This document shows, in pieces, positions 4,397 to 59,259 of a stretch of DNA of 64,000 nucleotides. The notes beneath the pieces were generated by a model. That model was not told the origin of the DNA, searched no databases, and saw only the letters and a list, made by a program, of their open reading frames with translations. The DNA is taken from contig JAWCKZ010000002.1 in NCBI GenBank assembly GCA_038851325.1, forward strand, positions 26,902-90,901, read 5' to 3'. Numbering within the stretch: the first letter of the stretch is position 1; each line of letters starts with the position of its first letter. This DNA comes from Candidatus Bilamarchaeaceae archaeon (GTDB taxonomy: Archaea; Micrarchaeota; Micrarchaeia; Anstonellales; Bilamarchaeaceae). The position numbers and the translations under genes were made by a program.

Positions 4397-6763
4397 ATGC
4401 AAAAATACTACGACCGAGAGATAGAAAAAAAATGGCAGAAATATTGGGAGGAGAACGGAACATACGGGTTTGATGAAGACGATGACGTCAAGCCTGTGTT
4501 TTCCATAGACACGCCACCACCGTTCACCAGCGGGGAGCTCCACATGGGGCATGTGCTGTCATACAGCTATTTTGATTTTGCAGCGCGCTACAAAAGGATG
4601 AGGGGCTTTAATGTCTACTACCCACAAGGATGGGACTGCCAAGGATTCCCAACAGAAGTGCGTGTTGAAAAGAAATACGGAAGACTTCCGTCAGTTGAAT
4701 TCAGACAAAAATGCGTGGAATGGACCGGAGAATTCATAGCACGAATGAAATCGCAGATGATAGAACTTGGCTTCAGCGCTGATTGGAGATACGAGTACAA
4801 GACTATGGATCCTGAGTATCACAGAAAGGTTCAACTCTCGCTTATTAAGATGTACCGCGACAAACTCATCTATCGTGCAAAATATCCGGTTTACTGGTGC
4901 CCAAAGTGCGTTTCAGCAATCGCAAAAGCAGAGCTTGACGATGTTGAAAAGCAGGGAACGCTGAATTACATAAAATTCAAAGGACCGGAAGATGAGGACC
5001 TGATTATTGCTACGACGCGACCGGAGCTGCTTCATGCATGCGTTGCAGTGCTTTTCCATCCTGATGACACGCGATACAGGCACTTGGAGGGAGAATGGAT
5101 AACAACGCCGCTGGGAAAGGATGTCGTTGTGTTGGCTGATCCTGAGGTCGACAAGGAGTTCGGTACTGGGCTTGTAATGGTATGCACCTTCGGCGACAAG
5201 ATGGATGTTGTGTGGGCGCACAGGTATAAACTGCCGGTGGTGGATGCTCTGGATAAGTACGGTAGACTTATGAACGCCGGCGAATTTGACGGCAAAAAAA
5301 CAGAGGAAGCAAAAAAGGCAATCATCGAAAAACTCGAAGCAGAGGGCAAGGTGGTAAAGAAGGAGCCTCTTCGGCAAACCGTTAAGGTCCATGACAGATG
5401 CGGGACTCCAGTGGAGCTTATCAATTCGATGCAATGGTTCGCTGACATAAAAACAACCGGGAAGCGCATAAAAGAGATGGCGCACAGGATAAAATGGATT
5501 CCTGATTTCGGCATAAGCTATCTCATCGACTGGGTCGAAGGAGCGGAATGGGACTGGGTTATCAGCAGACAACGGGCATTTGGAACTCCTCTTCCATTTT
5601 ACTACTGCGAAAAATGCGAAAGAACAGATGCTGCCGAAGAGCACGAACTTCCTTTCTACCCAGAAAGGGCAAAGCCAAAGGCGTGCGTGTGCGGGGCGGA
5701 GATGAAACCAGAAACAAGCGTGTGCGACTGCTGGGTAGATTCCTCTATAACCCCGCTCGTTATAAGTGGCTGGCCTGATGATGAAAAACGGTTTGCGCGG
5801 CTTTATCCAAATACATTAAGGCCACAGGGTGTCGAGATCGTTCGCACCTGGGCATTTTACACGATTTACAGAAGCGGGGTTGCGTTAACTGGTATTCCTC
5901 CATGGAGGGAGATATTGCTCAACGGGAATGTTCTCGCACCAGATGGGAAAAAAATGTCAAAATCCCTTGGAAATGTAATCTCACCCGCAGAGCTTCTTCA
6001 AAGCTATCCTGCCGACGCGATTCGCCAGTGGGCTGCGATGAGTGGCGCCATGGCAAAGGACAGGCCTTTCAGTTATGAAGATCTGAAATTTGCAAAATCG
6101 TTTTTGACGAAACTATGGAATGCAGCAAGTTTTATCCAACTCAACATAAAGGGATATAAAAGAGCAGACGAGGACGTGCGTATGATAACTATAATTGATA
6201 GATGGATTCTTCAAAAACTCAACGCCCTTATAGTAAGCTACACAACTCTAATGGAAGGATACGATTATCAAAAAGCGATATATGCCCTTCATGATTTCTT
6301 TTGGCATGATTTTTGTGATCATTATCTTGAGTACGTAAAGCATAGAGTATACGGTAGTGATGAAAGCGCGAAGAGGGGCGTTCTCTTCACATTGGTAACC
6401 GTGCTTGAGAACGTGCTTCTGTTACTCGCTCCGATAACTCCGCACATAACAGAAGAGCTTTATCATGAAGTTTTGGGAAGAAGGGAGAGCGTTCACAGCG
6501 CGAGATGGCCTGAAGTTGTGCACGGTGTGGAGGGGGATACAAGGCCAGCAGAGATATTAAAAGAAACGATAATACAGATAAGGCAGCATAAGGCAGCAGC
6601 GCGTCTTCCGCAAAACGCAGAATTAGAAAAAATTATTATAACGGACACGAAGGAAAATCTTGGTCTGTTTGGGCCGGAAATAATCAATGAGATAAAGAAT
6701 ATTGGGAAGATAAAGAGCGTGGAATTGAAAGAGGGGCCCGCCTTTCATGTTTCTGTTGTTTAA
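4397..6763 (+). CDS. valS: Valine--tRNA ligase
   Basis: IDTPPP..SGELHMGH, GTGLVMVCTFGD, DWVISRQR, KMSKS; start moved to MQKYY after GGGG RBS. Confidence 0.95.
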   Translation: MQKYYDREIEKKWQKYWEENGTYGFDEDDDVKPVFSIDTPPPFTSGELHMGHVLSYSYFDFAARYKRMRGFNVYYPQGWDCQGFPTEVRVEKKYGRLPSVEFRQKCVEWTGEFIARMKSQMIELGFSADWRYEYKTMDPEYHRKVQLSLIKMYRDKLIYRAKYPVYWCPKCVSAIAKAELDDVEKQGTLNYIKFKGPEDEDLIIATTRPELLHACVAVLFHPDDTRYRHLEGEWITTPLGKDVVVLADPEVDKEFGTGLVMVCTFGDKMDVVWAHRYKLPVVDALDKYGRLMNAGEFDGKKTEEAKKAIIEKLEAEGKVVKKEPLRQTVKVHDRCGTPVELINSMQWFADIKTTGKRIKEMAHRIKWIPDFGISYLIDWVEGAEWDWVISRQRAFGTPLPFYYCEKCERTDAAEEHELPFYPERAKPKACVCGAEMKPETSVCDCWVDSSITPLVISGWPDDEKRFARLYPNTLRPQGVEIVRTWAFYTIYRSGVALTGIPPWREILLNGNVLAPDGKKMSKSLGNVISPAELLQSYPADAIRQWAAMSGAMAKDRPFSYEDLKFAKSFLTKLWNAASFIQLNIKGYKRADEDVRMITIIDRWILQKLNALIVSYTTLMEGYDYQKAIYALHDFFWHDFCDHYLEYVKHRVYGSDESAKRGVLFTLVTVLENVLLLLAPITPHITEELYHEVLGRRESVHSARWPEVVHGVEGDTRPAEILKETIIQIRQHKAAARLPQNAELEKIIITDTKENLGLFGPEIINEIKNIGKIKSVELKEGPAFHVSVV

Positions 6764-8126: not shown

Positions 8127-8938
8127 ATCGCCGCGTACACGCCTTTTCTTTTCTCTATGACGTCTCCTGCCTCTGCAAGGATATGAAGCACCGTGCGAAC
8201 TGCATCTGGTTCAACTCTTAGGTTCGCGGCTATCTCTTCTATGTTTCTTTCCTTGTCCAGCTGTTTGAGTATAAGTGGGGACATCATTTCAAAATAGTCA
8301 GTTTTAGCGATGTAGAATTTACCATCAAAGCCCCTTAATCCCTTTATCTGACCTGCCTTTATCTCATTCTTGTGCCGATTTATTATTTCTTGAAGATCTT
8401 TTGAGGTTCCTATAACATATCCGTGTTGCTCAAGCGGGTCAACCATCTCTTTTTTTATCTCCTTTTTTCCAGTGTTGCTGGTGGCCACTGCTTCGATCCT
8501 ATTCTGAACATCGTGCTTGGCGCCTGCTGTTTCTTTTTTTAGTACCTCCTTCCCATAAAGAAGTCCATATATTTTATCATTTATATTGTACACGCCATTT
8601 GGATATTTCTTACTCTTAAACAAGTTTATAAATGCCTTTTTTTCAAGTTCTTTTAAAGTTTCTTTCTCTTCCTGGGAAAGTACCCTTTCCACATATGCTG
8701 GTGTTCTGTTTTGGAATCTTATTGAAAGGAGACGTTTGAGAACGCGTTTCTCTGCCTCATTTGGTACATGGAAGCCTTTCTCCGCTTTCTCTTCCCTGAG
8801 ATTTTCTGCCGTATTGCCAAGCGGAATGCTTAAAAGATAGTAGCCATCTCTAAGCTTGAAGACCTCTGCGTTTTCAAACAGTGAGAACTCCTCTGGAAGT
8901 TCTATATACGCCTTTCCCCCCTTTTTTATTATTCTCAT
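8123..8938 (-). CDS. Hypothetical protein, AbrB-like N-terminus and C-terminal winged helix
   Basis: MRIIKKGGKAYIELPEEF start; IEEIAANLRVEPDAVRTVLHILAEAGDV wHTH; directly downstream of cdc6. Confidence 0.6.
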   Translation of the reverse strand: MRIIKKGGKAYIELPEEFSLFENAEVFKLRDGYYLLSIPLGNTAENLREEKAEKGFHVPNEAEKRVLKRLLSIRFQNRTPAYVERVLSQEEKETLKELEKKAFINLFKSKKYPNGVYNINDKIYGLLYGKEVLKKETAGAKHDVQNRIEAVATSNTGKKEIKKEMVDPLEQHGYVIGTSKDLQEIINRHKNEIKAGQIKGLRGFDGKFYIAKTDYFEMMSPLILKQLDKERNIEEIAANLRVEPDAVRTVLHILAEAGDVIEKRKGVYAAI

Positions 8939-8939
8939 T

Positions 8940-10136
8940 CTATTCCCCAAACAAACTTTTTCTTGTGATTTCACAAACGTCCTGAGGATTTTGGCCAAGC
9001 CGCACAAGAGTAGTATGCCCCCTTATGCCTTTGCTGCTTGGAGTTGTTATTATGAGCCCGAGCATCTCAAGATCATTTAAGTATTCCTTGTACCATCTCA
9101 AGCTTCTTGGTTTCTTTTTTAGTTTTTTGCAGTTACGCTCATACTCCTCATATACCTCTCCAGACATTAAAAAACCATCTCCGATTTCTTCCCTTTCAAG
9201 TCTTGAGTACCGACTTCCGCTTAGCGAAAGAGTTGCGATTGAGTAGAGGACTATCTTGTGCATTTCTGGAAGAGTGCTAACAGTTTCTGCTATTAAGTCA
9301 ATCTCTACTCTTTTTCTTGCTTCATCGACATCCGCGTCGTCTACAGTTTGTTTTCTGTTTTGCTCTGCGATCTCCCCGGCGCGTAGAAGGAGTTTTAAGG
9401 CATAGCGTGCATCCCCGCTTTCTTGCGCGGTTACGGCGGCTGCAAGATTTATGGCAGATTGCTTAACCACGTTTGGCTGGAAGCCTTCCTCAACCCGTTG
9501 CTCAAGTATCTTCTGCAGCTGGTCCGATGTATACGGTGGGAAAACCATCTCCACTTCATGGAGGCTGGATTTACTTCTTGGATCGAGATTTTCTTTAAAA
9601 GAAAGTTTATTCGATATCCCTATTATAGTAGCACCACCACTACCTGCTCCTGTTTCGTCATTGGCGCGTGTAATCGTATAGATAAGTTCATCAAGATCAT
9701 GGATCATGTCTATCTCATCCAGAACAACAATTATCTGGTGCCCATTCCTCATAGTTTCAAGAAGTTTCTCGTAGAGAAACGGAAGGCCAAACCCAGCCTT
9801 CTCAAGCTCGGCGTAGTAACTTTTCATAATCTTTTGTAAAATTCTGTAGCGGGAGTTGTATATCCTACAATTAAGGTAATGCATTCTAGCTTTGCTCTCT
9901 ACGCTTTCGAACTCTTTCATAACTCTTTTTATGGTGCATGTTTTTCCGGTACCCGTTTTTCCGTAAATGACTAGATTTCTTGGCTTGATGCCTTTCAGTG
10001 CTGGTGCTACGAGCGCCATGATCTCCTCGATCTGCTTCTCCCTAAACGGAAGCGTTTGAGGAACATAATGTGGGGATAGCGCAGAGATATTTTTGAATAT
10101 TACACTTGTGCCCATAAACTTTTCAAAAGAAGTCAT
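8940..10136 (-). CDS. cdc6: Orc1/Cdc6 replication initiator
   Basis: LPFREKQI, YGKTGTGKT, VLDEID, GDARYAL, C-terminal wHTH. Confidence 0.95.
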   Translation of the reverse strand: MTSFEKFMGTSVIFKNISALSPHYVPQTLPFREKQIEEIMALVAPALKGIKPRNLVIYGKTGTGKTCTIKRVMKEFESVESKARMHYLNCRIYNSRYRILQKIMKSYYAELEKAGFGLPFLYEKLLETMRNGHQIIVVLDEIDMIHDLDELIYTITRANDETGAGSGGATIIGISNKLSFKENLDPRSKSSLHEVEMVFPPYTSDQLQKILEQRVEEGFQPNVVKQSAINLAAAVTAQESGDARYALKLLLRAGEIAEQNRKQTVDDADVDEARKRVEIDLIAETVSTLPEMHKIVLYSIATLSLSGSRYSRLEREEIGDGFLMSGEVYEEYERNCKKLKKKPRSLRWYKEYLNDLEMLGLIITTPSSKGIRGHTTLVRLGQNPQDVCEITRKSLFGE

Positions 10137-32656: not shown

Positions 32657-33110
32657 TAAATACCCCCCATTTATCCATTTTATGCATCAAAATTATTTTA
32701 AATGGTAATGGTGATAAAATCACATCGATGATGACAAAGGTGATCGCTGAGCCTTATGGCGATGAAGATTGACGTGCGGTCTGAAATAGTGCTTTAGTTT
32801 GTCAGAGCTAGGACTTCATTTGCTCGAATACTTTCACCCATACGATATTCGCAGCAAGGACAAAACTTCATAAATTTTGGCCTGTTTGGAAATTCGATAG
32901 AATTTACAATACAGGGACAAACAGCGCAACCGCGGCCAAATCCAAACTCGGGTCAAAATAATGTATTCCTGCCAACGTGTTTCTAAGAAGGTTCGCAGGG
33001 GGTATGAGTTACTCACAGGGAGTATGAGTAACTTTTAATACCTTATTGCACGCCGAAACGAACAACGGACACCTTCTTCAGCACGTAGAACAACCGGGTT
33101 GCTTGACTTC

Positions 33111-35891: not shown

Positions 35892-36785
35892 ATGGGAAAA
35901 GGTGTAGGAAGAGGAAAGGTTATTCTTTTTGGAGAGCATTTTGTTGTTCACAGCGTGCCTGCAATAGCGGCAGGAATAGATAACTCTGCGATTGTTGAAG
36001 TTAAAAAAGCTGAAAAAAATAGGATAATAACAAAACAGAATATCGTACCTGAGTTAAGTCTTGAGGGCATACAACTGGTGTTGGACGCCATGGGCATAAA
36101 AGATAAATACGATGTTTATCTAGACGGAGACCTTCCAACATTTGGAGGGCTTGGTTCATCAGCTGCCTTTTGCGTTGCGCTGGTGCGGGCAGTGGCCGAG
36201 GATAAAGGTATCGTTCTGACGGATGAGGAAGTGAACAGATACGCGTACGAGGGCGAAAAGGCGTTTCATGGCAGCCCTTCTGGTATTGATAACTTGATGG
36301 CCACGTATGGTGGAATAATAATCTTCAGAAAGGGACGCGGGGAGAGCTATTTCGAAAAAATAAACGCAGGAAAAAAGATGGACATAGTTGTTGGATTTAC
36401 AGGAAAGCTTAGCCAAACGAAAAAGATGGTTGAGTTGGTGAGAAAATTTAAAGAGGAGGACCCCGATCATTGGGTGCAACTTGCTGTTCAGGCTGCCGAT
36501 GTTGTTTACAGAGGAAAGAATGCGATTGAGAAGGGGAAGCTCGAGGAAATAGGAAAGCTGATGAATGAGAATCAGGTGCTGCTGTCCGAAATTGGTGTTT
36601 CTGACGAATTGAATGAGAAAATGGTAAAAATAATGCTTGATGCTGGTGCGTTGGGCGCTAAGCTTACAGGTGGCGGTGGGGGAGGATGCTGTATCGCGCT
36701 TGCGCGCGACAAAGTGGCGGCTATAGGGATAACGATGGCTCTAAAAAAGGAGAAGTTTGAGTCGTTTATAACAAGAATAGGATAA
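35892..36785 (+). CDS. mvk: Mevalonate kinase
   Basis: GKVILFGEHFVV, GLGSSAA, HGSPSGID, GAKLTGGGGGG. Confidence 0.93.
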   Translation: MGKGVGRGKVILFGEHFVVHSVPAIAAGIDNSAIVEVKKAEKNRIITKQNIVPELSLEGIQLVLDAMGIKDKYDVYLDGDLPTFGGLGSSAAFCVALVRAVAEDKGIVLTDEEVNRYAYEGEKAFHGSPSGIDNLMATYGGIIIFRKGRGESYFEKINAGKKMDIVVGFTGKLSQTKKMVELVRKFKEEDPDHWVQLAVQAADVVYRGKNAIEKGKLEEIGKLMNENQVLLSEIGVSDELNEKMVKIMLDAGALGAKLTGGGGGGCCIALARDKVAAIGITMALKKEKFESFITRIG

Positions 36786-36956
36786 AAACACGCAAACTGA
36801 AAATTTTTGGATACAAAGAAAATGTCACGGCCGAGAAAGCAGAAAAAAGCTTTCCCATGTGTCCTTAAGTCCTGAGACGCTAAACAGAAAGCTCAAAACT
36901 GAAAACTGACTTAAGGCCACAGCCGAGAAATTCATAAGAGAATTTTTCGGGCGTGC

Positions 36957-36973
36957 CTTGAACGAAGTTCAAG
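36957..36973. repeat. 17-bp palindrome CTTGAACGAAGTTCAAG, copy 1
   Basis: Identical to 37304-37320; abuts the tRNA discriminator base. Confidence 0.9.
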
Positions 36974-37281
36974 GGCCACGGCCGAGATTCGAACTCGGGT
37001 CTAGGGCTATCAGCAGGGTTTTTGCCCTCAGAAACACCGAAGACAAAAAGCCCAACACACCCAGAGGAGAAACCTCAGGGCTTTTTCCAGGGTTTTTGCC
37101 CTCAGAAACACCGAAGAAACCTCAGGGCTTTTTCCAAACGGTATTTAGCTCCTGAGACAGTCCTTAGGTCATAAGCACCTGCTTAGGAGCCAAATACCGT
37201 TTCCAGGGTTTTTGCCCTCAGAAACACCGAAGACAAAAAGCCTCCACAGGCCCCCATGCTAACCACTACACCACCGTGGCC
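36974..37281 (-). tRNA. tRNA-His(GTG) with encoded G-1 and 235-nt insert at 37/38 (exons 37281-37244 and 37008-36974)
   Basis: G-GCCACGG/CCGTGGC-C acceptor, D arm GTGT-AGTGGTTA-GCAT, anticodon stem GGGGC/GCCCT with CT-GTG-GA loop, T arm CCGAG-TTCGAAT-CTCGG. Confidence 0.92.
37009..37243 (-). other. tRNA intron / insert made of repeated hairpin modules
   Basis: 39-bp direct repeat at 37014-37052 and 37204-37242 (partial 37088-37117); 22-bp repeat at 37068-37089 and 37115-37136; long hairpin 37136-37202. Confidence 0.8.
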
Positions 37282-37303
37282 ATGAGCGAAGCGAATGGCC
37301 AGA

Positions 37304-37320
37304 CTTGAACGAAGTTCAAG
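37304..37320. repeat. 17-bp palindrome CTTGAACGAAGTTCAAG, copy 2
   Basis: Identical to 36957-36973. Confidence 0.9.
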
Positions 37321-37443
37321 AAGATGGTCATAAGGCCGCGGGCATTGTCCAAATAGTTGGTCAATCCAACCGCGGCCATAATGGGAAAGTTTAAAGATAT
37401 TGTATTAGAAGTATTTAAATAAGTTAAACAAAGGGGGATTTGA

Positions 37444-38139
37444 ATGACGACGCTTGATAAAGCGATCATCGCTTCTTATGAGAAAGAGGGAAAGCGATTC
37501 GAGCTTTACGTAGATCCTGAGGCTGCGTATGCCTACAAGGAAGGACGGAAGCCAGACCTAAAGAATATACTTGTTGCAGAGGAGGTATACGAGAACGCAA
37601 AGAAGGGCGAGCGAGCAAAGGTATCAGATATCCAAAAGGTCTTCGGGACCACTGACATAATGAAGATTCTTGAGTTGGTGCTTAAGGAGGGAGAAGTACA
37701 GCTTACAACAGAGCAGAGAAGAAAAAAACAGGAGGAAAAGAGAAAACAGATAATTGCAATATTGGCAAGGGAGGCGATAGACCCGCGAACGAAGGCGCCC
37801 CATCCTCCACAAAGAATAGAGAGCGCGCTTGAGCAGGTGCGTATTCAGATAGACCCGTTTAAGGATGCAAGGGAGCAGATACCTGCGATAGTCAAAGAAC
37901 TCATGCTTATACTTCCAATGAAGTTTGAGAAGGTAAAGGTGGCCGTGAAAATACCGCCGCAATATGCGCACCGGTGCTATGGAACAATAAAAAGCTATGG
38001 TATACAGAAAGAGCAGTGGCAGTCAGATGGCAGCCTTATTGTCGTTGTTGAAATCTTCGCAGGTGCGCAGGGAGAATTCTACGACAAGCTGAACAAGATG
38101 ACTGCCGGCAGCGTCGAAACAAGGGTGCTTGAAGAGTGA
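37444..38139 (+). CDS. Ribosome maturation protein SBDS/SDO1
   Basis: GKRFELYVDP, FGTTD, GEVQLTTEQRR, PHPPQRIE. Confidence 0.95.
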   Translation: MTTLDKAIIASYEKEGKRFELYVDPEAAYAYKEGRKPDLKNILVAEEVYENAKKGERAKVSDIQKVFGTTDIMKILELVLKEGEVQLTTEQRRKKQEEKRKQIIAILAREAIDPRTKAPHPPQRIESALEQVRIQIDPFKDAREQIPAIVKELMLILPMKFEKVKVAVKIPPQYAHRCYGTIKSYGIQKEQWQSDGSLIVVVEIFAGAQGEFYDKLNKMTAGSVETRVLEE

Positions 38140-45030: not shown

Positions 45031-46386
45031 GTGAAGAGTATGAAATATTTCAAAACATTTATGGTGGATGCTGCAAAGCAGAAGAGTAAAGGCCCTACTG
45101 CTAACCATAAACTAAACAAATTGTATGTTCAGCACGAAGGGTTGCTTACCACTCAAAACAACGTACAACCATCGCCAAGGGGGCGTAATGTAACCGTACA
45201 TGGTCCACTAAAAATTGCTTTGGAGGAGTTTGCGCCAGACGCCGAAAGCTACGACTCTCTACGATGTATAACCAGGTTCGCAAGCGAGGACTTTAGTAGT
45301 CTTTCGGAGTACCTATTTACAGTGCTCAAAAAAGCCTTTGAAGGCGTGGTGAGATGCTCCATCTATCTTGCCGAAGAGGTAGGAACCAGGAGCAGTTTCA
45401 AAACAATCCTCTCGCATTATCTGACTATTAACATGAATGGAAATGTAAGAACAAGTTCGTTGGACAAGGGAAGCAGAATATCAGATAAGAGCGATCCTAT
45501 TTTGAAGGCTTATCTGGATAAAAAACCCAGGTTTATAGATTATCGCGCGGGCATGGACCTGATTTTCAAGAATCTTAATTATGAAAACAAAGACTGTGAT
45601 GTGTACGTAAGAGAACCTAACATCCTTAAAGATGATGTTGCGTTGATACCATTTTATTACAGGGAAAGGGATAAACTTCGCGGTGTGATGGTACTGGAAG
45701 GAAACCTCAAGTGTAAAAATTCGGCAAAATGTGGTTTTGGGAAAGCATTCTATTTTATGATGGCAGCTACAGCACTCGGCGCCCAAGTTGGTTTTATATC
45801 AATGCAAAAATACGATCACACAACCGCGCTGTATAAAAAAAGCGATTTTGAGATAGACCTAAAAACATTAATTCGCAGATTGTTAAAAGCACAAAAGCGT
45901 GGTGCGCAAAAGAACGCTATTATCCTTCTCGTAGACCTTGATAATTTTAAGGCGGTCAATGAGCATTATGGATATTTAGCTGGGGACGCTCTTCTTAGTA
46001 ATATAGCAAAAGCGATAAAGAACTCCGTGCGCAGGCCCACACAAAACAGAAAATCAGACATTATAGCCAGATGGGGCGGGGAGGAGTTCGCTATTCTTCT
46101 TGAGGATATAGATGAAGAAAATGCAATCAAAATAGCCAACCGAATCAGGGACGAGGTGGCCAAGGCAAAGATAAAAGTTGACGAAAAAGAGATAAGAGTA
46201 ACATGCAGCATAGGCCTTCTTAATATCGAGAAAGCTTTGGCGACAGATAAGAGAACAGGTGTGGATGAAGCAGCAAAAAATGTTTTTAATAAATGCAACA
46301 CCCTTCTCAAATCTGTTAAAAGCAACGGAAAGAATGGAATAGCGTTTGTTTCAGAGGGCAATGGTGTGGAGCTGATACGCGGATAG
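45031..46386 (+). CDS. GAF-like + GGDEF diguanylate cyclase
   Basis: DLDNFKAVNEHYGYLAGD, RKSD I-site, ARWGGEEF, VTCSIG, KSNGKN. Confidence 0.88.
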   Translation: MKSMKYFKTFMVDAAKQKSKGPTANHKLNKLYVQHEGLLTTQNNVQPSPRGRNVTVHGPLKIALEEFAPDAESYDSLRCITRFASEDFSSLSEYLFTVLKKAFEGVVRCSIYLAEEVGTRSSFKTILSHYLTINMNGNVRTSSLDKGSRISDKSDPILKAYLDKKPRFIDYRAGMDLIFKNLNYENKDCDVYVREPNILKDDVALIPFYYRERDKLRGVMVLEGNLKCKNSAKCGFGKAFYFMMAATALGAQVGFISMQKYDHTTALYKKSDFEIDLKTLIRRLLKAQKRGAQKNAIILLVDLDNFKAVNEHYGYLAGDALLSNIAKAIKNSVRRPTQNRKSDIIARWGGEEFAILLEDIDEENAIKIANRIRDEVAKAKIKVDEKEIRVTCSIGLLNIEKALATDKRTGVDEAAKNVFNKCNTLLKSVKSNGKNGIAFVSEGNGVELIRG

Positions 46387-55488: not shown

Positions 55489-56518
55489 CAGCAGTTGGAG
55501 AAAAATGGGTTCTTGCGGCTTTGTAGCCAATCGAATTTAAGAAATCAAGAACATCGTTCATCTTCGGCACGCTTCCTCGCGAAATAAACTTTGAGATTCT
55601 ATGAAGATCATAAAAATATGGTGGCATCCCAATCTCTTGTTCCATAAGCTCTAATTTATTATGTATCTCTTCTCTGTGACCGTACCCTCTCTTTTCATTT
55701 AATTTTTTCATTTCTCTGAGAATATTTATATCGTGGAGCTCTCCGAGCCAAAGCGGTCCTGCGTACTCAATATTTTTATTGCAGACCTTGCACCACTCCG
55801 TTGGAAAGCGCACTGCTCTCCTGAAGCCACAATGTGGGCAGTACTCGACATAACCAAGACGTGCAAGCGCGTTGTTTGCTTTCTCTGCCCCCCTTGTTAC
55901 CTTTACTACAGTTTTTAAATAATGTCTATCAGAGATCGAAAGAAGAGGTATCGTTCCCATGTTAAATTCGGCACCTACTTCGGCTATCTTTTTTATCAAA
56001 ATCCTGAGACCGTTTTCGTGCGTGCATTCATTGTTCAGCGGCTTTGCATGATAGTTTTTCATACACGGCTTTGTTTTTCCGCCGCACAGAACAGCAGTGT
56101 CTGTTGCTGTGACTGAAAGATATCCCTGCTTAAGGGGATTAAAGATTCTGAAAACATCATAGAGATACGGAGATGGTGTCCCAAACGGGTCAACCTCGAC
56201 AAAATCAGCGGTTATGTCGAAAACAAGTCTTGAGATGTTCCCATGGAGTACAGAGAATTTTATTTTGTTTTTCCTTGCATTTTTTCTTGCACATGCCACG
56301 GCCGCTTTATTCACATCAACAAATATAGTGCGCCTTACATTATCATTTTCGATGGCATATCGTATGCCCCGTATGCCAGTTGCTGCAAATCCGTCGCACA
56401 CAATGATTTTTTCCGCCAATGCACCGATCAAAAGCGAAACAATGCTGCGACAGAACGTCATTTCTTTATTGTAAAAAACCCCCTTCGGTGCGTTAAACAC
56501 CACTCCCTCCTCCATCAT
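55430..56518 (-). CDS. trm1: tRNA (guanine26-N2)-dimethyltransferase
   Basis: VFYN..M, ATGIRGIRY, DPFGTP, TATD, GPLWLG.L, RTHF....KTDA. Confidence 0.93.
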   Translation of the reverse strand: MMEEGVVFNAPKGVFYNKEMTFCRSIVSLLIGALAEKIIVCDGFAATGIRGIRYAIENDNVRRTIFVDVNKAAVACARKNARKNKIKFSVLHGNISRLVFDITADFVEVDPFGTPSPYLYDVFRIFNPLKQGYLSVTATDTAVLCGGKTKPCMKNYHAKPLNNECTHENGLRILIKKIAEVGAEFNMGTIPLLSISDRHYLKTVVKVTRGAEKANNALARLGYVEYCPHCGFRRAVRFPTEWCKVCNKNIEYAGPLWLGELHDINILREMKKLNEKRGYGHREEIHNKLELMEQEIGMPPYFYDLHRISKFISRGSVPKMNDVLDFLNSIGYKAARTHFSPTAVKTDAPYEKVLEAFVVQKK

Positions 56519-57858: not shown

Positions 57859-59259
57859 CTATGACCCCATTTTTTCTGTCTTTGTTTTTCTGTCTTTGTT
57901 GCGGACCATGTGGATGATCGATTTATAAGACTGGAAGAGTGAATTAACAAGGGTTTGATTTCCGCCCAGATAGTAATGATGCGCCGCACCCCCCTCCTCA
58001 GCTATCTGATGCCACTCCTTTGTTTTCAGCTGCACTTCAAATCGCAGCAATCTCGAGGTGAGAACATCCTCGGGTTCGGTGTCGTAATGGAACGCCTTAT
58101 AACCATTTTCAGGTTTGACTTTGAACTCTGGAGTGCATTTTTTGTAAAGCACGCCAGGGGTTGTATTTAGTCCGCATAAATTTGATTCTATTACTGCCTT
58201 TGCCAATTCCAGAGCTCTCCCCTTTGCGTCTTCTTCCATCTTGTCTACCTCAATCCCATGTAGTTTGTTGATGATAACGCGGAGCGCTACAAGGTCATTA
58301 AGTTTTGCAATGTCGTAGTATTGAATAATCGATCTTATATATTTGTTTAGTTTTTCTTCATTTTCCTCAGAACTCTCGTTATGACCAACATGTAGACGCT
58401 TAAACTCATCCACCAATCTTCTATATATCTTGCGCATTATTTTCCCTTCATGTTTTTTCATTCTTGGTGCAACAATCGCATCTGTGAAGCCTTGGACTCT
58501 TAACGTTTGCCTGATCCGTCTTGCAAGATCTTTGACAATGTTTTGCGTTGTATGCAGGCGTTCCGTAAGCCCGGTTTCATTCATTTTTTCCATTACATAT
58601 TCGTATATCTCTCTGTGGTTTATCTTAAATGCGTGGAGAAGAATATCTCCTGCTAGGGATGGATATCCAAAAAATTCTGCCAGCGGGGCGTAGATTTTCT
58701 CCCCTGCTGTTGCGTCCCTTTTTAGAGAGTTTTCTGCATCCGATTGAGAATCGTAAAGCCTGAATATAGAACAACCATTGTTGTTAATGACATCATTTGT
58801 TCTTTGGCTTGTTGTGTGCGTGACAGCGACATCAACTATTCGCGGCAGCAAAGCCAATGGAGCTGGTTTGTTATCATTAAGTAAAGGAATATAACTCTCC
58901 AGCGGAGCACCAGCGCGATCAAGATTTCTCAACTGACAGAATATTCTGAGTTCGTCGACTATTGCTCTTTCTTCTAGCATTTGAAGGATGGAAGGGTCCA
59001 AGCATTTAACCTTATCATAATCTATCATGTGATAAAGTACAATCTCTGTAATCCGGTGATTCAGTTCAGCCCTTTCTGGATCTTTTTTGTAGTGTTTTAT
59101 TGCACTTCCATTCACCATCTTTACTTCTTCAGCCTTTTTCATGACTTCAAGGCAGTGTTGGTAGAGCTGCATAGCATTTTTTTTGAAATAAAAATTCCTA
59201 GCTGTTAGTATACTGGATTGAAGGGATGGTAATTTTTTTCTAGTTCGTATAAATTCCAT
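57859..59259 (-). CDS. RelA/SpoT homologue: degenerate HD region plus (p)ppGpp synthetase domain, no TGS/ACT
   Basis: IYAPLAEFFG, PRMK...IMRK, NDLVALRVI, KPENGYKAFH, FEVQLKT..WH..AEEGGAAHHYY. Confidence 0.82.
   Translation of the reverse strand: MEFIRTRKKLPSLQSSILTARNFYFKKNAMQLYQHCLEVMKKAEEVKMVNGSAIKHYKKDPERAELNHRITEIVLYHMIDYDKVKCLDPSILQMLEERAIVDELRIFCQLRNLDRAGAPLESYIPLLNDNKPAPLALLPRIVDVAVTHTTSQRTNDVINNNGCSIFRLYDSQSDAENSLKRDATAGEKIYAPLAEFFGYPSLAGDILLHAFKINHREIYEYVMEKMNETGLTERLHTTQNIVKDLARRIRQTLRVQGFTDAIVAPRMKKHEGKIMRKIYRRLVDEFKRLHVGHNESSEENEEKLNKYIRSIIQYYDIAKLNDLVALRVIINKLHGIEVDKMEEDAKGRALELAKAVIESNLCGLNTTPGVLYKKCTPEFKVKPENGYKAFHYDTEPEDVLTSRLLRFEVQLKTKEWHQIAEEGGAAHHYYLGGNQTLVNSLFQSYKSIIHMVRNKDRKTKTEKMGS

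Follow-up and report, generated by a model that had tools for sequence, protein, structure and literature searches.

The DNA analysed here, a window of 64 kb in all, carries on its minus strand (37281-36974) a complete tRNA-His(GUG) gene, the cloverleaf of which can be drawn from the exons alone and which encodes its own G-1. In intron mode ARAGORN reports exactly one gene in the window, tRNA-His(gtg) at c[36973,37280] with a 235-nt intron at 37-38, and this is still the sole tRNA when introns of up to 3000 nt are allowed. With positions assigned by reading the sequence, G-1 falls at 37281, G1 at 37280 and G37 at 37244, whereupon the intron (37243-37009) intervenes between nucleotides 37 and 38, A38 being at 37008 and C73 at 36974. 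The acceptor stem has 7 bp, the D stem 4 bp, and the anticodon and T stems 5 bp each; the anticodon loop is CUGUGG/A (the stroke marks the intron), the variable loop has 4 nt, the T loop is standard, the discriminator is C, and the 3′ end as read from the sequence lacks an encoded CCA. An earlier note on this DNA had described intact tRNA-His halves parted at 37/38, a description with which both the ARAGORN intron-mode call and the identity of the exons to those of a related gene (L008, see below; 37/37 and 35/35 nt) agree. Further, it had expected tRNA scanners to miss the gene: default ARAGORN calls no tRNA in the 64-kb window, and Rfam yields no hit for the locus at the gathering score and none over the whole window at E≤0.05, while the 16 sub-threshold matches obtained at E≤10 across 36600-37700 do not include the tRNA family. 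The features of the locus are collected in Table 1.

Table 1. Features of the tRNA-His gene, its intron and its immediate flanks, in the order of transcription
Feature	Position	Strand	Details
24-nt repeat, leader copy	37297..37320	-	With 17-nt palindromic hairpin; 16 nt upstream of G-1; repeat family D3
tRNA-His 5′ exon	37244..37281	-	G-1, then G1 to G37, anticodon GUG; ARAGORN intron mode; all 37 nt compared identical to L008
BHB central helix, exon side	37246..37249	-	C32 U33 G34 U35
Intron	37009..37243	-	235 nt between nt 37 and 38; ARAGORN intron mode; MFE -104.8 kcal/mol
Single base of insert	37243		1 nt
Unit 1 (39-mer copy 1)	37204..37242	-	39 nt, first in the RNA; 13-bp hairpin, 3 of its pairs G-U; 5′ arm next to the 5′ splice site; read on the + strand, core plus first 9 of the 27 nt
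Hairpin-bearing insertion	37135..37203	-	69 nt holding the 67-nt palindromic hairpin (37136-37202); TTTCCA on each side (37131-37136 and 37200-37205); inverted repeat I1
Unit 2	37088..37134	-	47 nt; 30-nt core (37088-37117) plus 17-nt tail, the same 17 nt as in unit 3 (+ strand reading); 22-mer copies 47 nt apart
Unit 3	37014..37087	-	74 nt; 39-mer copy (37014-37052), 15 nt (37053-37067), 20 nt of the 22-mer; read on the + strand, 30-nt core + 27 + 17
Further hairpin inside unit 3	37059..37081	-
BHB central helix, intron side	37011..37014	-	GCUG, pairs with CUGU save U33:U; followed by 3′ bulge AU/A
Last segment of insert	37009..37013		5 nt, ATCAG (+ strand reading)
tRNA-His 3′ exon	36974..37008	-	A38 to discriminator C73, 4-nt variable loop, without CCA; ARAGORN intron mode; 35 nt identical to L008
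24-nt repeat, trailer copy	36950..36973	-	With 17-nt palindromic hairpin; begins directly after C73; repeat family D3

The flanks of the gene are themselves structured. The whole tRNA-His gene is bracketed by a 24-nt direct repeat with 88% identical copies, each of which encloses an identical 17-nt palindromic hairpin; the latter has two matches in the window, a number reached in none of 100 shuffles. The bracketing repeat might act as a signal for processing, belong to a repeat element or be the scar of a duplication. Further upstream, between a TATA-like TTTAAA (about 37390-37395) and the tRNA, lies a GC-clamped hairpin (37334-37377, minus strand) in which an 8-bp GC stem surrounds a smaller hairpin. 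The region 37297-37380, which includes the leader palindrome, folds at -33.9 kcal/mol in the tRNA sense (z -5.6), and the GC-clamped hairpin, which has no Rfam match, may belong to a long leader or constitute a small RNA of its own. Downstream, partial copies of the tRNA-His 3′ end, comprising the 3′ strands of the T stem and the acceptor, occur at 36913-36930 and 36821-36838, each with its own hairpin ahead of it, and the loop of a hairpin in this region holds four tandem copies of the 7-nt repeat AAACTGA (36882-36909; Tandem Repeats Finder). Comparable copies accompany two of the related genes introduced below: in L008 at least four units of tRNA-His 3′-end copies form a 69-nt tandem array (8943-9318, partly masked as N), and in L001 a single additional copy lies 93 nt downstream (6424-6453 and 6517-6546). 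No integrase was found near the tRNA-His of L008 or of the window, and the downstream 3′-end copies look like a recurrent trait of Micrarchaeota tRNA-His loci.

The protein-coding neighbours of the gene are archaeal, and include SBDS, fibrillarin, topoisomerase VI, aRF1, Cdc6 and RNase P proteins. The best named relatives of the aRF1 belong to Candidatus Bilamarchaeaceae (78% identity) and to Micrarchaeota, which identifies the host as a DPANN archaeon. Elsewhere in the window, one encoded protein has a GGDEF domain and another a RelA/SpoT-like region (45031-46386 and 57859-59259); these nucleotide-signalling domains are not known to be common in archaea. Two further stretches, 55489-56242 (754 nt) and 32657-33110 (454 nt), are devoid of ORFs of 70 aa or more and of Rfam hits.

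Genomes were scanned with a pattern spanning nucleotides 8-37 of the tRNA-His with positions 25-30 left free. This recovered 18 loci, mostly from DPANN MAGs (each denoted here by L and a number), which have nucleotides 8-24 and 31-37 of the 5′ half in common with the window. None of them comes from the same genome, and none is closely related to it beyond the tRNA; protein synteny with them amounts to five weak matches, none near the tRNA-His. Nine of these loci (L001, L004, L007, L008, L011, L012, L013, L015 and L018) are interrupted at 37/38 by introns of 19, 21, 25, 30, 42, 45, 49, 55 and 55 nt, those of L011 and L013 having been placed by eye and then confirmed, and the other nine have no intron there. 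The window intron is hence about four times longer than those of the related genomes, and the longest intron that ARAGORN finds in any tRNA of the 18 loci is 84 nt. The earlier statement that archaeal tRNA introns are usually far shorter than this one therefore holds for the relatives and also for the published record, in which the main text of a 2014 review (PMC4090602) gives a range of 11-129 nt and medians of 12-25 nt, though its supplements might list longer ones, and a passage of another review speaks of 'less than 100 nt' (PMC4033280).

The closest counterpart is L008, a locus from a Bilamarchaeaceae MAG, where exons identical to those of the window flank an intron of 25 nt with similar ends. 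At the 5′ intron end both have GG, a run of U and one further U, and at the 3′ end a run of A followed by CC..GC.GA. Beyond the exons, nothing in L008 aligns to the window at the DNA or protein level, so the exons have been kept constant across species. In L004 and L015 an arm of the intron is duplicated on a small scale.

Several observations on these loci stand apart from the intron. Six of the 18 related genes (L002, L007, L012, L013, L015 and L017) have an insertion in the T loop, which in four of the six accompanies a 37/38 intron and which in L017 measures roughly 90 nt by eye. In L008 an LSM (Sm-like) gene adjoins the tRNA-His and a Pab1020-type RNA ligase is encoded about 2.5 kb off (5270-6349 and 8512-8760), so that two genes with RNA-handling functions lie near the tRNA. 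Finally, an archaeal-type tRNA-His with the same D arm is present at 798-871 of L016, a 2.2-kb contig labelled as a Saccharibacteria (bacterial) MAG, which may reflect a binning error or a transfer.

The long intron of the window can be dissected without remainder. Its parts (5+74+47+69+39+1 = 235) amount to three tandem units of 74, 47 and 39 nt built on a common 30-nt core, together with one palindromic insertion of 69 nt, the removal of which restores the core junction as it appears at 37080-37095. The repeats on which this dissection rests had largely been picked out before: the two copies of the 39-mer (37014-37052 and 37204-37242) are indeed 100% identical, the partial third copy at 37088-37117 matches over 30/30 nt, or 34/34 with its flank, the 22-bp repeat recurs at 37068-37089 and 37115-37136, and the 67-nt hairpin (37136-37202) has 31-nt arms that are 81% complementary. 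In the separate searches for the 39-mer and the 22-mer, none of 100 shuffles reached the number observed in the window. The insert is also non-coding, as claimed, its internal ORFs all being of 65 aa or less, with the longest starting at TTG and running into the exons. The earlier note had further read the recurrence of the 5′ junction sequence UGG/A (TCCA on the plus strand) at 37086, 37133 and 37202 as marking internal module boundaries; the three occurrences are there, but all lie within the repeated TTTCCA, so that they represent one repeated junction as opposed to separate boundaries arising from independent events. Tandem Repeats Finder calls no array within the intron, likely because there are fewer than two uninterrupted periods and a 27-nt indel separates the units. 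That three tandem units and a single palindromic insertion account for the entire insert speaks for duplication in place, and the 100% identity of all repeat copies argues that the events were recent.

Such tightly packed perfect repeats immediately raise the question of whether the assembly is faithful. An artefact, in which strain variants or repeat loops were stitched together via the 30-39-nt repeats and the true intron is shorter, could account for perfect 22-39-nt repeats crowded into 235 nt, and the source is probably a metagenome assembly given that the close relatives are all MAGs. However, the flanks differ for each repeat copy, and two short reads of typical length exceed the repeated stretch in its entirety, so that the assembly should be resolvable. 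Additionally, the unique segments, namely the hairpin and the 15-nt spacer, must adjoin the repeats in some real molecule, and smaller versions of the arm duplication occur in relatives. On balance we consider misassembly very unlikely.

A group I or II intron or a homing-endonuclease intron was rejected since there is neither an Rfam intron family nor a credible ORF, and an element integrated at the tRNA gene was rejected since the insert ends show no exon duplication and no integrase family features among the window ORFs scanned. A resemblance of the 67-nt hairpin to the hairpin region downstream of the gene (36815-36975) proved not significant: scores as high or higher came from 103 of 988 random genomic windows and from 34 of 500 shuffles.

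At the RNA level the intron is predicted to fold very stably, its minimum free energy of -104.8 kcal/mol corresponding to a z-score of -7.7 and being matched by none of 200 shuffles. The 39-mer folds in the tRNA sense at -17.5 kcal/mol (z -4.9; 0/200 shuffles) as against -7.1 kcal/mol on the opposite strand (z -0.8; 36/200 shuffles), which bears out the proposal that it forms a hairpin with G-U pairs on the transcribed strand; such specificity for the tRNA-sense RNA is expected if the 39-mer is the intron's own stem-loop. The same asymmetry is seen over 37014-37089 (-32.8 kcal/mol with z -5.4 in the tRNA sense versus -20.5 kcal/mol antisense). The 67-nt hairpin, at -35.6 kcal/mol, is again equalled by none of 200 shuffles, and it folds on both strands (-35.6 and -33.1 kcal/mol) in the manner of a DNA palindrome. 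Two global arrangements are iso-energetic, one made of local hairpins (-93.2 kcal/mol) and the other with the first 39-mer paired to the last (-93.5 kcal/mol); when the exon helices are held fixed, the ensemble assigns a probability of ~0.77 to the long-range closing helix.

The strength of this fold (z -7.7) and the confinement of the G-U pairs and strand-specific hairpins to the tRNA sense would also suit an enlarged intron kept for a functional stable RNA, such as a circular hairpin array that binds a protein or acts as a guide, and functional RNAs nested in a tRNA intron have a precedent described in the main text of PMC4090602. Yet no Rfam family was recovered, the best match, to a plant miRNA hairpin, reaching 29.5 bits where the gathering score is 59, and the inner modules are conserved in no relative among the 18 loci. 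Inspection by eye of the RNA-sense intron revealed neither a C-box nor an ACA box, and the specific candidate of an intron-hosted box C/D or H/ACA guide RNA was rejected on the same ground and because no such Rfam hit appeared at E≤10. As the strand-specific fold is already accounted for by the intron's own stem-loop, a retained functional RNA seems to us quite unlikely.

The splice signal was judged against the hBHBh′ yardstick, that is, two 3-nt bulges with a 4-bp helix between them and helices flanking both. The outer helix is provided by the 5-bp anticodon stem and the bulges are GGA (G36 G37 A) and AUA, between which the central helix retains C32:G, G34:C and U35:G and has a U33:U mismatch, leaving it 3/4 paired. 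The inner helix comes into register only when an extra U, opposite the 5′ bulge, is left unpaired, or when this U pairs with the first base of the intron and the 5′ bulge shrinks to 2 nt. The outer junction is accordingly a relaxed BHB with a single U-U mismatch in CUGU/GCUG, much as the earlier note had drawn it. In eight of the nine intron-bearing relatives the central helix is fully paired; the exception is L008, the U:C mismatch of which occupies the same position as the U:U of the window. RNAfold assigns the canonical central helix a probability of just 0.03-0.07 with the exon helices fixed, but this measure was dropped as a grade of BHB quality because relatives with textbook BHBs also score low (0.00-0.34), and it consequently does not discriminate. 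The first and last 39-mer copies furnish the arms beside the splice sites, so that the BHB context outlasts the expansion. Passages of PMC5829648 and PMC12397907 describe cleavage of relaxed BHB and BHL substrates by the epsilon2 endonuclease of ARMAN-2, a member of Micrarchaeota. No splicing endonuclease or ligase gene is encoded within the 64-kb window.

The weakening of the BHB relative to eight of the nine relatives invites the reading that this is a tRNA-His copy recently inactivated by repeat expansion and a MITE-like palindromic insertion, with another tRNA-His serving the cell. The 67-nt hairpin, folding alike on both strands and bounded by a 6-nt direct repeat, would be the inserted element, and the perfection of all repeats would place the change too recently for decay of the exons to be visible. 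Against this, the exons and G-1 are intact and identical to those of L008, both bulges and 3/4 of the central pairs are retained, and no further copy of the 67-nt hairpin turned up in the 64-kb window or among the 18 loci. In small DPANN genomes each tRNA is usually encoded by a single gene. A related genome is indeed small, at 1.27 Mbp according to a passage of PMC8561730, and we regard inactivation as unlikely. The hairpin does share with MITE/REP-like elements its terminal inverted repeats, its two-strand fold and the 6-nt direct repeat at its borders; unlike them, it is very short and occurs once in the window. The 6-nt direct repeat moreover overlaps the hairpin ends, and may be coincidental.

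The modular interior had earlier been explained by serial or nested insertion of introns, or by a proliferating small element hidden in the anticodon loop, with removal by stepwise splicing. In its most explicit form, this scenario would have paired 39-mers direct the excision of 190 nt, after which a canonical intron of 45 nt would be cut second. A scan for BHB motifs does lend it something: 39-mer copies 1 and 3 can form a two-fold symmetric motif in which a 4-bp helix lies between two 3-nt bulges, with 12 bp beyond each of them; cuts there would take out 190 nt and leave a single 39-mer. Other motifs from the scan of the pre-tRNA are very many but weak, with 2-bp flanks, and were set aside as chance-level. 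A possible parallel is furnished by Thermoproteales, where like intron sequences in different tRNA species have been read as intron transposition (a passage of PMC4033280, citing Fujishima 2010). Nevertheless, the 4-bp helix of the symmetric motif, the sole well-formed internal BHB-like one, consists of four consecutive G-U pairs, a self-complementary 4-mer in a loop has by our estimate a chance of about 1 in 7, and the fold as a whole, at -79.3 kcal/mol against -93.2 and -93.5 kcal/mol, is 14 kcal/mol worse than the arrangements noted above. The internal UGG/A, being one repeated junction, has no BHB around it, and the insert resolves into tandem units and one insertion, which tells against nesting. 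As for proliferation, a search for the 39-mer beyond its own intron found no further copies in the window or the 18 tRNA-His loci, the same being true of the 22-mer and the 67-nt hairpin, and the region 36786-37443 has no match in phage and plasmid collections, although an element of low copy number could have escaped these searches. Nested or spreading introns removed stepwise are thus, in our view, highly improbable.

A related and more speculative conception, to which we likewise attach very little probability, is that the intron serves as a safe harbour for selfish hairpin DNA within a streamlined DPANN genome, where a palindromic mini-element and the stem-loop native to the intron proliferate, possibly as a mobile protein-spliced intron. 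The copying would be free of cost because whatever sits between both bulges is cut out. Here the paired stem-loops might act as a second symmetric endonuclease site, releasing a 190-nt circular RNA able to reinsert elsewhere.

The reading that we find reasonably probable is that the locus is a working tRNA-His(GUG) gene with a BHB intron at the canonical site, which was recently enlarged in place and is removed in one step at a relaxed BHB. While the anatomy of the gene, its repeats, the strand-specific hairpins, the introns of relatives at this site and the taxon are shown above, the duplication history, single-step splicing and circularisation that follow are inferred. The ancestral intron would have been akin to those short introns, of 19-55 nt, that interrupt tRNA-His in related lineages, and probably of about 45 nt, consisting of one base, the 39-nt stem-loop and CUGAU, a length that falls within the range of the relatives. 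The 39-mer has the make-up usual for a short intron, namely a stem-loop with its base against both bulges. Tandem duplication of a unit based on the stem-loop would have given rise to the units of 74, 47 and 39 nt, with an indel of 27 nt between units, and the 69-nt palindromic hairpin would have been inserted or made by fold-back. The resulting RNA would be a string of hairpins, in which an alternative pairing of the 5′ arm of the first 39-mer with the 3′ arm of the last could close the intron beside the splice sites. The endonuclease would then cut once per bulge, at G36 G37/A and A U/A, the exons would be sealed by an RtcB-type ligase, and all 235 nt of the intron would be released together, probably as a circle. 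This history does not account for the 35-nt spacer between core copies, which counts against it, as do the imperfect BHB, the lack of a Tandem Repeats Finder call and the lack of endonuclease and ligase genes in the window.

Viewed against known systems, the site, the exon context, the layout of bulges and central helix, and the stem-loop core are those of canonical archaeal 37/38 BHB introns, including those of related DPANN tRNA-His genes; what sets the window intron apart from the short DPANN tRNA-His introns is its 235 nt as against 19-55 nt, its U:U mismatch and its interior of perfect repeats. The site and layout of the intron are therefore standard, as presumably is its enzymology, while its length is well outside the published ranges. 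In Nanoarchaeum equitans, another DPANN archaeon, a split tRNA-His, reportedly described by Randau and colleagues in 2005, is likewise said to be broken after nucleotide 37; there, however, two separate pieces are said to be joined in trans, whereas that of the window is a single gene with a cis intron. The archaeal tRNA-Trp introns with a box C/D small RNA inside them, as presented in the main text of PMC4090602, offer another example of an unusually long 37/38 intron with structured content, but the window intron has no C/D box pair, no K-turn and no Rfam match. With the transposed introns of Thermoproteales, as treated in a passage of PMC4033280, it has in common the idea that BHB intron sequences multiply; in that case like introns are found across different tRNA genes, whereas here the copies lie inside one intron, with none elsewhere in the sequence searched. 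In the literature searched no description of long tRNA-His introns in DPANN was found, and the word 'intron' appears nowhere in the Bilamarchaeum paper.

As the gene escapes tRNA finders run with default settings, genomes of this kind can wrongly be scored as lacking tRNA-His, both in completeness estimates and in tRNA tallies. If the intron is real and spliced, it would be nearly twice as long as the upper limit given for archaeal tRNA introns (129 nt in the main text of PMC4090602), and would imply that the archaeal splicing machinery copes with a 235-nt multi-hairpin insert behind a weakened BHB. Growth of an intron via stem-loop duplication would here have been caught with the copies still identical, and this would bear on how DPANN archaea come to have longer and more varied tRNA introns.
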